64,000 bases of DNA from a virus (Duplodnaviria > Caudoviricetes): the IMG/VR virus record IMGVR_UViG_3300006153_000003. One strand, written 5' to 3'. Under the pieces are notes generated by a model. It had not been told where the DNA came from, searched no databases, and saw only the letters and a list, made by a program, of their open reading frames with translations. The position numbers and the translations under genes were made by a program. Below, piece by piece: positions 8,806 through 58,502 of this stretch; within the stretch, counting starts at the first letter, position 1, and every line of letters begins with the position of its first letter.

Positions 8806-8857
8806 ATCGTGCATCATTCGTAATTGACCAGAAACATTTAACAATTTAAGCCATATT

Positions 8858-8886
8858 AAAAGGACTGGCAAATCCCAGTCCTTTTA
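8858..8886. terminator. Bidirectional intrinsic terminator
   Basis: AAAAGGACTGG-caaatc-CCAGTCCTTTT between convergent genes. Confidence 0.75.
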
Positions 8887-52818: not shown

Positions 52819-55560
52819 TTGTTAGACAAGCAATATAATATGTATTCTGTAGATACTGGACATTTTTATAGCAATCATGAAAAATACTTACACAATATGA
52901 ATTGTAAATATCGTAAAGAACGTAATTATGTTCTGAACAAATTACCGGAAATCGAAAAAAAATTAATGCAATACGGATATACAGAGGATGATCTTAAGAA
53001 TCTTAAAAATGAAAAGATTGAAAAAATTGATATTATTGAGTCTTCTTATGATATGATTTCTAAATATTTACATTGGGTAAGATTAATTAAGCACAAAAGA
53101 AAAAAAGCGAAAGAATCAAAAGAGGAATTGCTTACTCTTCTATCAAATAAAGTCATTCAAAATGAATTAACAGATGGCAAAGATCATATTCGGATAATAA
53201 AAGAAGATAGTATAAATGATACAAATATTATTTCCGTTTTTGATTCATCACTTAGCAGAATTATTGGCATCAAGCAAGATGAATTAACAGAAGCTTTAAT
53301 AGTAGTCCAAGTATATTATTTTGATGTATTCAAAGATATTTCATTCTATGGTTTTAAATACAAAGGTAAAAAATATAAATATTTTACTTCTTCTGCAGGA
53401 CAAATTCGAAAAAAGAAAGCTGTATTTATTAAGGAATCTGTGTGGAATAAGATTGAAAAAAGTATCATGTGTGGTTTGACAATAGGAAAAATCAATTCAA
53501 AAGGAGGGAATAATGTTAATAAGCATTTAGCTTATATGGCTCTAACAAATTCCGCGACTGATGAGTGGAAAGAATTTAATATTGATAAGTCTATTGTTAT
53601 TGATGATTTTGAGACTAACGTATATGGTACTTTTGACTTCGTAGATGATGTTGACTATTCGATTACAAGAAAAACAGATTATGTTCCAATACCTCATACT
53701 GACGGAGCTGGCATGATACTACCCTCAATTTCTAAAAAAAATTTTATGTTTCGTGCCCCTTGGATTAAAGGATTGTTAGGTGTATTTGATTTTAAGAAGT
53801 TTGTAGAGATAAATAACTACTCTCCTATTATTACAGATATTTACGGAAAAAAATATGATATTATTAAAGAAGATATCCAAATTATCTTTACAAAATCCCA
53901 GTTTAAAATGTGGAAGTATTACGATTCCTGGGATGAGTACAAGGTATATTTTAAAAAGTATCAATGTGAAGCTGGTAAATGTAATATTGAAGAAGATAGA
54001 ATTAAGAATGCAAAGATAAATTATCAGATGCTTCAAACACTAACAAACATTACAGATGAGGAAATTGATTTGCTTACTCAGAAATCGTCTGAACGAATTA
54101 GTAATATCTGTAGTTCAAAAGAAACTATGATGGATATTCTTGGTATCACACCCTATAATACAAATATGTCTTCATTTCAAAAAGCGGTAAAATTGTATCC
54201 TGCCTTATTGAATGATACATATGCAAAAGATGTTATTCGAGAAGTGAAAAACAGTCTTCTTAAAAAGTACCGTAGTGGAAAACTTGAAGTAACTGGGAAA
54301 TATACATTTTTACTCCCTGATTTTTATGCAGCTTGTGAATATTGGTTTGGACACATTGATGAACCAAAAGGATTATTAGATGATAAAGAAGTATTTTGTT
54401 GGCTATTTAAACAGTATGATAAATTGGATTGTTTGAGAAGCCCACACTTATATAAAGAACATGCTATTAGATTCAACGTTGCTAATAAGGGTTATGGTGA
54501 ACGAGCAAAGCAAATAAAGGAATGGTTCATTACTAATGGAATTTATGCTAGTACCCATGATTTAATAAGTAAAATACTTATGTATGATGTTGATGGAGAT
54601 AAAAGTTTAGTAGTTGCTGACAAAACCTTTGTTAGAATTGCAGAGCGTAATATGAATGGCATTGTTCCGTTATACTACAATATGCGCAAGGCAGAACCAA
54701 CAGAATTAAACAATAAAAATATTTACGCTGGACTTAACGCTGCTTTTACCGGAGGAAACATCGGTATTTACAGTAATAATATATCCAAAATTTGGAATGA
54801 CGATGTATTTATAAATGGATCAGAAGAAGATAAACAAAAGGCTATTGATTGTGTAAAAAGATTATGTTGTCAAAATAACTTTGTGATTGATTATGCTAAA
54901 ACCTTATATAAGCCAGAATTTCCTCGTGATATTAATGAACAAATTTCTAAATTCACAAATGGAAAATTGCCTGCGTTCTTTAGATTTGCAAAAGATAAAG
55001 AAAAATCCCAGGTAAAAGATCGAAATCAGAGTTTTGTAAATAAAATTTATGATAGAATACCAAATAAACCAATTAATACTAGGGGTATGCACCTTGGTAA
55101 TATTGATTATAAAATGCTGATGGAGAATCCAGAAATTATTTGTACTAAAGAAGTATCTAATTTATATGATATGTTAAATAAACAATATAGATATATGATT
55201 AATATGAAGGATGAATACATCGATAACTTAAGATATGTAGCATGTAAAATCAGAGAAGAATTTGACGAGTTTGGATATTCTAGTGAAACTATTTCGGATA
55301 TGCTTGTTGAATACTTATATGGTAAAGGGAAACGCTACAAACAATTGTTATGGTTCTGTTATGGACAATATGTTGTGAATAATTTAGAAAAGAATATTAC
55401 AGGTAAAAAAGTCAAAATAATTCAATGTATTGATTGTGGTGAATGGATTGAAGTTGATTCAAAAGACAACAAAACTTGTAGATGTGAATTGTGTAAAACA
55501 ATTTATAAAAAGAACTATCATAAAGAATATATGAGAAATAAAAGAAGTTTGTTAAGTTAG
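52819..55560 (+). CDS. YonO-like single-subunit (two-barrel) DNA-dependent RNA polymerase
   Basis: HTDGAG, FRAPWIKG, LRSPH and catalytic DVDGD motifs; C-terminal Zn ribbon; 913 aa. Confidence 0.85.
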   Translation: MLDKQYNMYSVDTGHFYSNHEKYLHNMNCKYRKERNYVLNKLPEIEKKLMQYGYTEDDLKNLKNEKIEKIDIIESSYDMISKYLHWVRLIKHKRKKAKESKEELLTLLSNKVIQNELTDGKDHIRIIKEDSINDTNIISVFDSSLSRIIGIKQDELTEALIVVQVYYFDVFKDISFYGFKYKGKKYKYFTSSAGQIRKKKAVFIKESVWNKIEKSIMCGLTIGKINSKGGNNVNKHLAYMALTNSATDEWKEFNIDKSIVIDDFETNVYGTFDFVDDVDYSITRKTDYVPIPHTDGAGMILPSISKKNFMFRAPWIKGLLGVFDFKKFVEINNYSPIITDIYGKKYDIIKEDIQIIFTKSQFKMWKYYDSWDEYKVYFKKYQCEAGKCNIEEDRIKNAKINYQMLQTLTNITDEEIDLLTQKSSERISNICSSKETMMDILGITPYNTNMSSFQKAVKLYPALLNDTYAKDVIREVKNSLLKKYRSGKLEVTGKYTFLLPDFYAACEYWFGHIDEPKGLLDDKEVFCWLFKQYDKLDCLRSPHLYKEHAIRFNVANKGYGERAKQIKEWFITNGIYASTHDLISKILMYDVDGDKSLVVADKTFVRIAERNMNGIVPLYYNMRKAEPTELNNKNIYAGLNAAFTGGNIGIYSNNISKIWNDDVFINGSEEDKQKAIDCVKRLCCQNNFVIDYAKTLYKPEFPRDINEQISKFTNGKLPAFFRFAKDKEKSQVKDRNQSFVNKIYDRIPNKPINTRGMHLGNIDYKMLMENPEIICTKEVSNLYDMLNKQYRYMINMKDEYIDNLRYVACKIREEFDEFGYSSETISDMLVEYLYGKGKRYKQLLWFCYGQYVVNNLEKNITGKKVKIIQCIDCGEWIEVDSKDNKTCRCELCKTIYKKNYHKEYMRNKRSLLS

Positions 55561-55772: not shown

Positions 55773-56078
55773 TTGATTATTACACAAGACTCCTTAATAA
55801 AACAAATAGCAGATAAAGAAGATATTAATGTGGCAACGGTTCGAAATATATTTAAATCAGCAGAAGATATTATTTTTGACCACTTATCTTCTACTACTCC
55901 ATCTGAAAATATAATTATAAAAATATTGAATGGAATTAGTTTAGAAAGAAAATACATACCTAAGAGGATATATACTAAAGGTATGTTTAAAAACATTGAT
56001 TGTCCAGAACATGTAAATATAAAAGTCAACTCATCTACATATTATACAAGAAGAATTAATGACAAATTGTTTTCATAA
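55773..56078 (+). CDS. Divergent HU/IHF-like protein
   Basis: ITQDSLIKQIA...TVRNIF. Confidence 0.6.
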   Translation: MIITQDSLIKQIADKEDINVATVRNIFKSAEDIIFDHLSSTTPSENIIIKILNGISLERKYIPKRIYTKGMFKNIDCPEHVNIKVNSSTYYTRRINDKLFS

Positions 56079-56130
56079 TAAAAGTCAAAATCCCCATTGG
56101 ATAAAACCAATGGGTACATAAAAATACAAT

Positions 56131-56758
56131 AATGAATATTTTCTCGTATTTTCAAATAACTCAGTGAAGAATGGTTTAGTCACCATGCTGAGAATATACG
56201 GATGCTGCCAAATTAATTCTTGGGATACTTAGAATGGATTTGGTCCGAAATATTGCGAAATATATTAGGATAAAAGATAAAATCTCAAAAGCAAGTATAT
56301 GTACTGAGAGTAAACGTAGTAAAATGCTGTCGTCTGGTCGCTGATATAATAGAGAGCTGCGCTGCAGTGCACAACCCTGATGCCTATAGCCTGATAACCT
56401 ATAGGAATTGAGTAAGTAAGGGAAATATCACACCAAGTCAGTTTGTCGTGAGGATTCAGAAATGAATCGTATAAGACCAGTTGGACGAACAAGTAGCCTA
56501 AGACAAGCACATTAATGAATCTGTATTTGTTATATTAGCAAGTAAAACAAATATTATAAAAGAAAACATACTTCTGAATGATAGGTGAACGTTATTCGTA
56601 ACCAATCGAATACACACGGAGACAGATGTATTTCTGTTGGGTAAGAAGTTTATGGTCGACGGGTCATAGACTCAGACTTATCTAGGTGTTTGCATAATAT
56701 TATTGCGTTTACGGAGGCAACCTGAAGGGGTATTTGAAAATACGAGAAAGTATTCATT
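56131..56758 (+). ncRNA. Large (~630 nt) structured ncRNA, ROOL/GOLLD-class candidate
   Basis: 28-bp closing stem 56131-56158/56731-56758 with one G-U; many internal helices; directly upstream of tRNAs. Confidence 0.75.
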
Positions 56759-56824
56759 CTATTTTTCATTTTTTCTCATATGGGTGGCGGTGCTACTGTT
56801 CTGGTAGTATCGTCATCTGTTCTT

Positions 56825-56897
56825 GTGTCTATAACTCAATTGGTAGAGTAATCGGCTTTTAACCGATAGGTTTTGGGTTCAAGTCCCAATAGGCACA
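56825..56897 (+). tRNA. tRNA-Lys(TTT)
   Basis: Cloverleaf; anticodon arm ATCGG-CTTTTAA-CCGAT; TTCAAGT T-loop. Confidence 0.9.
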
Positions 56898-56899
56898 TT

Positions 56900-56979
56900 G
56901 CTGGCGGGTGGAACGGATATATAAACCATACCAGGCTCATACCCTGCGTGATACTCAGTTCGACTCTGGGGCTTCAGCA
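56900..56979 (+). tRNA. Atypical tRNA-Met/Ile2(CAT)-like gene
   Basis: CAGG-CTCATAC-CCTG anticodon arm, TTCGACT T-loop; enlarged D-loop and imperfect acceptor stem. Confidence 0.55.
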
Positions 56980-57178
56980 ATTTTGTGAAGAGTTACAATT
57001 CTGTAGCTCTTTTTTTGTTATTTCATATAGGGTGATTACTACCCTGTCGTTTTGTGAAATTTTTATGCTTCATAAAATTTCTCCTTACTTGGGGTGATTG
57101 TTGCAGCAGTCACTCTATATGAAATAACAAAAGCGTTATCTGCAAATAACGATTAATAAAGGAGAGACAAAAAGTTAT

Positions 57179-58045
57179 ATGGTTAAAAAATTTACGAAAC
57201 GACAACTACTAGTTCAATGTGGATTTACCGCAGAAGATACTCAAATTATTCTTGATTACCAAAAGAAACTTCCAATATTATTAGAAGATAATGATACTTG
57301 GATAAACGCAAAAGATTTATGGGAACAATTGAAAGTAAAAGACAAATATACAGATTGGATTAAAACCCAGATAAAAACTTTTGAATTAATAGAAAATATT
57401 AGTTATATGACGAATTCGGTTCAAACCGAAATCGCAAATAATGGTTCAAAAAAAATAACAGAATATCAGATTAAGGTAGAAACCGCTAAAAGTATTACTT
57501 TGGTTATAGGATATAAAGGTGGTAATATATCTAAAGAATTAAAGGAAAATAGCAAACTCGCTCATAAGTATTTTATTCTTATGGAAAAAGCAGTAAAAAG
57601 AAACATCGAATGGGAACTAATCCGTTATCCTCTCCGTGAAGGTTACAAGAAAATGCAGAACGCATTAAATCAATATATGAATCGTATAGTTCAGAGAAAT
57701 GCTGATGATTGGGATTATAGTATGGAGGCAGATGCACTTAATATAATTGCAACTGGTTTTCCTGCAAAAGAAATTAGATTGTTTGTTGGATGTAAAGATA
57801 ATATTACAAGAGATAGTTTGACAGCTACATATAATGAATATTTAATGAAACTCCAAGAATTAAATATTATATATCTTGGTATGAATATGAATCGCTATGA
57901 ACGCTATAAAATGCTTAAACAATCTTTTGATATTTTGTTTCCAAATGCAATACCAATTAAAGATGATATTGATATTAACAAGATTCAAGCATATAAACAG
58001 AAATTATTAGATGAAACAAAAGAGAAAGTTCAAAGGGCAGCTTAA
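57179..58045 (+). CDS. AntA/AntB-type antirepressor
   Basis: INAKDLWEQLKVKDKYTDWIK...KYFILMEK. Confidence 0.75.
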   Translation: MVKKFTKRQLLVQCGFTAEDTQIILDYQKKLPILLEDNDTWINAKDLWEQLKVKDKYTDWIKTQIKTFELIENISYMTNSVQTEIANNGSKKITEYQIKVETAKSITLVIGYKGGNISKELKENSKLAHKYFILMEKAVKRNIEWELIRYPLREGYKKMQNALNQYMNRIVQRNADDWDYSMEADALNIIATGFPAKEIRLFVGCKDNITRDSLTATYNEYLMKLQELNIIYLGMNMNRYERYKMLKQSFDILFPNAIPIKDDIDINKIQAYKQKLLDETKEKVQRAA

Positions 58046-58069
58046 TTACTGCCCTACTTTATATACTAT

Positions 58070-58142
58070 CGCAGATTATGTTGGAGTGGTTCCACACATG
58101 GCTCATAACCATGGTACACGAGTTCGAATCTCGTATCTGCAA
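58070..58142 (+). tRNA. tRNA-Met(CAT), initiator-like
   Basis: C1:A72 mismatch; CATGG-CTCATAA-CCATG; TTCGAAT T-loop. Confidence 0.8.
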
Positions 58143-58211
58143 TTGTTTTGTCTGTTTAGTATAAACAGTCCTCCGTAGCCAGGCTCTTCGTTAACAGTCC
58201 GATATTATCTT

Positions 58212-58284
58212 TGGCATATAGCTCAGTTGGTAGAGCACTTGTCTGTTAAACAAGATGTCACAGGTTCGATCCCTGTTGTGCCAG
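58212..58284 (+). tRNA. tRNA-Asn(GTT)
   Basis: Canonical cloverleaf, CTTGT-CTGTTAA-ACAAG, discriminator G. Confidence 0.92.
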
Positions 58285-58331
58285 CTACTCTCCTACCTGG
58301 GGAGAATTTAGATGAAAGCGAGTGAAATACA

Positions 58332-58502
58332 ATAGTTAAGATTTCAAAGAAAGAAATGCAGTATTTAGTAAGTAAAGGAATACGTTTTGGCGAAAATGGG
58401 ATCAGCCATACTACAGCCAGACATCGGCGAAATTATTGGTGTACTGAGAATAAGAAATGTATGTCATTACTAAATGAGTATCGTAAGAGAGTTACTAAGT
58501 AA
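58332..58502 (+). CDS. 56-aa basic protein with a possible ATA start
   Basis: (M)VKISKKEMQYLVSKGIRFGENGISHT...; fills the gap in the operon. Confidence 0.55.
   Translation: MVKISKKEMQYLVSKGIRFGENGISHTTARHRRNYWCTENKKCMSLLNEYRKRVTK

Follow-up and report, generated by a model that had tools for sequence, protein, structure and literature searches.

A segment of about 630 nt is placed between the yonO and HU-like genes and a tRNA-Lys gene of a tailed-phage genome, and the question arises which RNA, if any, it encodes. The preliminary description, made from the letters of the DNA alone, had proposed an ornate structured RNA of this extent on the plus strand, either ROOL-like or a new class. The segment is part of a window of 64,000 nt (the whole stretch of DNA that was analyzed), taken from a 130.9-kb IMG/VR virus record (IMGVR_UViG_3300006153_000003) with an estimated completeness of 69%. 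The region is the complete gene for a ROOL RNA and an ordinary new copy of a catalogued and structurally solved family. With a probability of roughly 0.9, it is the ROOL gene of a large YonO-encoding SPbeta-like gut phage of Lachnospiraceae whose RNA would be co-transcribed with its neighbors and would assemble into an octameric cage. The coordinates of the RNA gene, its parts and its surroundings are listed in the table.

Table. The ROOL RNA gene, its structural elements and neighboring features in the window.
Feature	Position	Strand	Remarks
YonO-type single-subunit RNA polymerase gene	52819-55560	+	phrog_8308, E 7e-248; PF05183
Small ORF, weakly HU/IHF-like N-terminus	55773-56078	+	PF00216, E 0.0068, below cut-off; kept beside yonO in relatives
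GC-rich hairpin	56093-56114	+	16 nt upstream of P1, past the stop codon of the HU-like ORF; no U tract follows
ROOL RNA gene with the whole closing helix	56131-56758	+	Rfam core 56136-56750; fold; covariation
P1, 5' arm	56131-56158	+	pairs with 56731-56758, one U-G; columns 8-31 covary with 715-741 among relatives
L2 loop UUAGUC	56176-56181	+	AGUC (56178-81) equals env-120 A38-C41 of kissing loop B1; UCA invariant
Hairpin loop CCUGAUAAC	56390-56398	+	UGAUA (56392-96) is the 5' side of kissing loop B4
UAUCA	56426-56430	+	3' side of kissing loop B4
GAAA-capped hairpin	56453-56468	+	loop 56459-62; adenines form the B2 A-minor bridge in env-120
A/U-rich variable linker	56501-56571	+	unalignable among relatives; position according to PMC12286853
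Conserved UUCUGAAUGAUAGGUGAA motif	56572-56589	+	GAU (56580-82) is the B1 partner
L18 hairpin GGUC-GACG-GGUC	56654-56665	+	site of the B6 half-shell contact; env-120 B6 is G565-C566
P1, 3' arm	56731-56758	+	followed by a U-rich tract (56759-56776)
G-U-rich 19-bp hairpin	56780-56820	+	ends 3 nt before the tRNA-Lys 5' end
tRNA-Lys (UUU)	56824-56898	+	ARAGORN; Rfam tRNA model 72 bits; 66 nt after ROOL
Degenerate tRNA look-alike	56900-56979	+	directly after tRNA-Lys; CUCAUAC anticodon loop (CAU), T arm CUCAG/CUGGG, oversized D arm

The assignment is based on an Rfam 15 scan of the window, a check that the preliminary description had suggested with the remark that a ROOL hit would confirm the RNA and reduce its novelty. 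This is the outcome. The ROOL model RF03087 matched the plus strand with 286.7 bits (E 1e-64), i.e. about three times the gathering score of 99.1, and the alignment is untruncated and covers the model from position 1 to 574 of 574. The full-length match shows that the first branch of the earlier proposal (ROOL) was right and the second (a new class) wrong; together with the 28-bp closing helix it also bears out the extent and the strand given there. The conserved ROOL motifs GUGAAGA, GGAUAC, AAUAGA, GUAGCC, UUCUGAAUGA..GGUGAA and CUCAGACUU are present. At the gathering threshold, ROOL and three tRNAs were the only Rfam matches in the window and there was none for GOLLD, OLE or the group I and group II intron models. 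A search of the whole record gave the same result and a single ROOL copy. A blastn comparison of the ROOL region with 50,697 phage records returned no match.

The closing helix P1 comprises 28 bp, 27 of the Watson-Crick type and one U-G, in which the 5' arm AATGAATATTTTCTCGTATTTTCAAATA is paired with the 3' arm. On the minus strand this U-G would be an A-C mismatch, and hence the RNA strand is the plus strand, precisely as had been reasoned before. P1 is the longest inverted repeat detected by a repeat finder in 56000-56900 and is retained as the closing stem in the minimum free energy fold. The energy of this fold (-171.9 kcal/mol) is well below that of shuffled sequences (-135.8 ± 6.3 kcal/mol; z = -5.74) and is equaled by none of 20 shuffles. 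The Rfam ROOL alignment pairs each of the internal helices that had been listed from the sequence: CTCAG/CTGAG (56160-64/56188-92), CCAAATT/GATTTGG, TCGTCTGGTC/GACCAG..GACGA, CCTATAG/CTATAGG (56383-89/56399-405), the hairpin GATTCA-GAAA-TGAATC (56453-68) and TATTCG/CGAATA (56593-98/56607-12).

Covariation, the absence of which the preliminary description had named as evidence against its proposal, is extensive. ROOL loci were gathered from viral contigs by means of a conserved 16-base motif and their extents were set with an iterated nhmmer profile. An alignment of 29 of these ROOLs and the window sequence (30 sequences) was folded with RNAalifold. The consensus contains 108 pairs and compensatory double changes are observed in 101 of them. 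Sequence and fold agree with the ROOL family from end to end, and covariation backs the fold. Close relatives score 282–349 bits as ROOL overall, and the four closest ones (L139, L103, L124 and L140) 282–291 bits where scanned. Downstream of the RNA, these four loci have the same gene order as the window, with a small phrog_9079 protein, an exonuclease, a 192-aa protein and a tyrosine recombinase. The lengths inferred for the linker vary among relatives from 28 to 192 nt.

ROOL was described in 2017 as an ornate RNA of 581 nt that occurs in several phyla and is frequently located in prophages and close to tRNAs (Weinberg et al., PMC5737381). The cryo-EM structure of the env-120 ROOL is an RNA-only D4 homo-octamer of ~280 Å across, whose hollow space contains only a disordered linker; the linker loop is directed toward the cage interior. 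Two intramolecular pseudoknots of this structure are named P10 and P13. Octamers need no protein and are stable down to 12.5 nM in vitro (PMC12286853). A second group solved the ROOLs of E. faecalis and Firmicutes CAG:227, as summarized in PMC12515178. The published env-120 residue tables were used to map the inter-chain contacts onto the window sequence, restricted to the motif-anchored contacts B1, B2, B4, B5 and B6 because residue counts along the printed env-120 sequence departed from the tables by 2 nt between positions 122 and 163.

In kissing loop B1, AGUC of the L2 loop is located opposite GAU of the conserved motif UGAAUGAU / UUCUGAAUGAU. The C-G and U-A pairs are invariant across relatives, and the third pair covaries (A-U in 19, G-C in 8, G-U in 2 and G-A in 1 of the 30 sequences), with G-U in the window. 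Accordingly, B1 has only three possible pairs here (C-G, U-A and G-U) compared to four in env-120. The two sides of B4, UGAUA and UAUCA, are perfectly complementary over 5 bp. In the family, this contact was at first noticed as a tertiary pairing that covaries. The corresponding sequences of env-120 are UGGUA and UACCA, so that one pair is altered on both sides, which is a compensatory change. Among 21 distinct sequences, a B4 helix of at least 4 bp is formed in 90% of the cases by a loop and its own partner, but in only 38% of the cross-sequence combinations. That B1 and B4 covary in this independently gathered set of viral contigs is an argument for the cage as a real biological structure.

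The GAAA loop and the L16 loop GUAACCAAUC agree with the consensus of the Rfam ROOL alignment. The L18 loop (alignment columns 625-645) is of the GACG type in 10 of the 30 sequences, including the window, and of the U(C/A)GCU type in the other 20. Both types hold a self-complementary dinucleotide, CG in GACG and GC in U(C/A)GCU (the variant UUGCUA has GC as well). We know of no solved structure with a GACG-type L18. Furthermore, the 3-nt loop of the P7 'daisy-chain' hairpin differs in the window. Given the three-pair B1, the minority L18 type and the altered P7 loop, the octamer is something that we only infer for this particular sequence; judging from the conserved contacts and the solved homologues, it likely assembles. 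If the RNA behaves like its three solved homologues, eight copies would form a protein-free hollow D4 cage with a diameter of ~28 nm. Each half-shell would consist of four chains held together by kissing loops B1 and B4 and by the A-minor bridge of the GAAA loop, and the loops L16 and L18 would connect the two half-shells. The A/U-rich linker would be situated inside the cage.

The position of the RNA beside tRNAs had been correctly pointed out before. The tRNA-Lys gene is on the same strand, and the majority of the other 29 ROOL loci likewise adjoin same-strand tRNAs, several of which start no more than ~30 nt after the 3' end of ROOL. No convincing sigma-70 promoter was detected upstream of ROOL: eight promoter-like sites were present compared to 15.8 expected from shuffled sequences, and none is well placed. 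There is a TACAAT box resembling a -10 element at 56125-30, without a -35 element. Co-transcription of ROOL with tRNAs was proposed by Weinberg et al. (PMC5737381). In the window, the case for it is made by the common strand, the hairpin abutting the tRNA 5' end and the ~30-nt spacing of ROOL and tRNA at other loci. Transcription would proceed rightward together with the neighboring genes and would probably yield one precursor of ROOL, the downstream hairpin and tRNA-Lys, from which ROOL would be freed by an RNase P cut at the tRNA 5' end. According to the same summary of the second group's work (PMC12515178), a pre-tRNA fused to the ROOL 3' end leaves octamer formation undisturbed.

The same arrangement could mean that the RNA is a genuine ROOL which does not form a free RNA-only cage in the cell. 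It would then act in cis as the 5' part of a tRNA precursor, stabilizing tRNA-Lys or timing its release, or as a monomer bound to a protein. The same-strand tRNA only 66 nt downstream, the hairpin at its 5' end, the tRNAs that abut many other ROOLs, the two ROOLs that hold a tRNA in their linker and the suggestion of Weinberg et al. (PMC5737381) are all in line with this explanation. On the other hand, the kissing loops that build the quaternary structure covary, which indicates selection on intermolecular contacts, and octamers persist in vitro at 12.5 nM (PMC12286853). A purely cis-acting or monomeric ROOL is therefore unlikely, and the cage-forming ROOL is the preferred reading. Our best guess for its function is that ROOL aids the lytic growth of the phage as a scaffold or container tied to the phage tRNAs and translation.

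In two related full-length ROOLs, L086:1600-2195 (+) with 326.5 bits and L129:495-1088 (-) with 326.4 bits, a tRNA is nested in the linker. The nested tRNA of L086 is a tRNA-Phe(GAA) at 1954-2027 (53 bits); that of L129 is located at 661-734 (51 bits) and has an odd anticodon loop of 8 nt. In both cases, the 3' end of the tRNA abuts the UUCUGAAUGA motif. These are two of 59 motif-selected viral ROOL loci. In the ROOL structure paper, linker tRNAs are mentioned only for GOLLD (PMC12286853). A more specific function, doubtful at present, would be that of a carrier or shelter of phage tRNAs, with a cage that displays or encloses them, for instance to shield them from anticodon nucleases of the host or to control when they are released. 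As a carrier, ROOL would be joined to its tRNA in several ways: as one ROOL-hairpin-tRNA-Lys precursor here, with the tRNA at the ROOL 3' end elsewhere and within the linker in L086 and L129. If this were true, these arrangements would be the natural counterparts of the engineered ROOL-tRNA fusions. The window copy alone adds little, being one more ROOL in a known and solved family; the tRNAs nested in the linkers of L086 and L129 are a lead on the role of ROOL.

The host phage type is indicated by the polymerase gene. The YonO protein of the window is ~46–47% identical to YonO of the SPbeta group and 50% identical to that of Clostridium phage D-1873. Its nearest relatives in genomes, with up to 83% identity, are found in prophages of Lachnospiraceae. 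This places ROOL in SPbeta-like, YonO-encoding Lachnospiraceae phages. The pair of yonO and the HU-like gene followed by tRNA genes is conserved in many Lachnospiraceae prophages and viral contigs (loci L002-L081 and L141-L220).

Rfam scans of 12 close viral relatives detected ROOL in the same slot only in L077, whereas the other 11 have tRNAs there and no ROOL. In a profile search of 160 YonO loci, ROOL follows yonO directly only in L077, and in seven other loci it is located ~3.3 kb further downstream. What lies between the HU-like gene and the first tRNA varies: ROOL in the window and in L077, an ORF-poor spacer of ~430 nt in L002 and L010. An alternative structured RNA in the slot of L002 and L010 was considered and rejected, as these spacers are no more stably folded than shuffled sequences (z = +0.44 and -1.33). 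The junction of yonO/HU and the tRNAs behaves as a slot in which ROOL is gained and lost among related phages, and ROOL is not fixed in this phage type. Pairs of phages with and without ROOL could be compared in order to learn about its role.

Such a pattern of presence and absence would also be explained if the segment were an element at the DNA level, namely a small mobile insertion with terminal inverted repeats of 28 bp. The slot is filled in the window and in L077 and not in 11 other close relatives, ROOL occupies it in only one of 160 other YonO loci, and the ends do form a long inverted repeat. However, the imperfect position of this repeat is a U-G pair when read on the plus strand and an A-C mismatch on the minus strand, as expected for pairing in RNA. 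The arms covary among homologues, i.e. the pairing is kept and no terminal sequence is conserved. Furthermore, a transposase is missing, and aligning the region with relatives that lack ROOL revealed no target-site duplication. This explanation was rejected, the covariation of P1 speaking against it, and is very improbable.

Compared to the ROOL family, the window RNA (~615–628 nt versus a mean of 581 nt) has the same long closing helix, multi-junction architecture, conserved motifs, B4 and B1 complementarity, variable linker, phage setting and neighboring tRNA. The differences are minor: P1 is longer (28 bp), L18 is GACG instead of U(C/A)GCU, B1 has three pairs instead of four, and the gene is located in an SPbeta-like phage straight after the yonO and HU-like genes. 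GOLLD is likewise a large ornate RNA of phages and prophages that lies beside tRNA genes and forms an RNA-only cage, but its sequence and fold are unrelated, it exceeds 800 nt, forms a 14-mer and has no match in the window. OLE shares with ROOL that it is a large ornate bacterial RNA and a homo-oligomer. In contrast to ROOL, it is a dimer with protein partners at the membrane, is encoded in the chromosomes of extremophilic and anaerobic Firmicutes and has no match in the window either. A new class of large RNA that merely resembles ROOL could invoke only the 28-bp P1, the GACG L18 and the 3-bp B1. It is refuted by the end-to-end match at nearly three times the gathering score, and with relatives at 282–349 bits and the invariant ROOL motifs present, next to nothing remains of its probability.

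The absence of a credible ORF, also claimed before, holds: no plus-strand ORF of at least 40 aa is present inside the region, and the sole ORF there, of 81 aa on the minus strand (56265-56510), was rejected as its coding function, with a practically negligible probability, since it matched nothing in Pfam even at E<=1, is antisense to a strongly covarying RNA and is surrounded by genes that are on the plus strand from ~43000 onward.

Both hairpins that flank ROOL in the window have analogues at other loci. In the unrelated contigs L077, L125, L119, L139 and L130, GC-rich hairpins precede the closing helix of ROOL by 10–25 nt. Analogues of the downstream hairpin (56780-56820) are observed 20–35 nt after other ROOLs (across L077, L139, L103, L124, L140, L125, L119 and L130). 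This hairpin of ~40 nt is also conserved in L002 and L010, which have no ROOL. It is rich in G-U pairs and hence strand-specific, and it may serve in processing or termination.

Further downstream of tRNA-Lys, an AntA-family gene, tRNA-Met and tRNA-Asn and the genes of an exonuclease, a tyrosine recombinase and a GIY-YIG endonuclease follow in this order. An Rfam scan of 56700-58400 by E-value yielded only tRNAs and chance matches to microRNA models. The tRNA look-alike next to tRNA-Lys is below the thresholds of ARAGORN and Rfam; in L002, the homologous sequence (8808-8881) reaches 37.3 bits as a tRNA, and paired changes are present in the T arm between the window and L010 and L002. Between the look-alike and the AntA gene, an element of ~118 nt (57014-57131, plus strand) matches no Rfam family apart from chance microRNA models (E 0.3–0.8) and is closed by a stem of ~17 bp, TTATTTCATATAG...CTATATGAAATAA.
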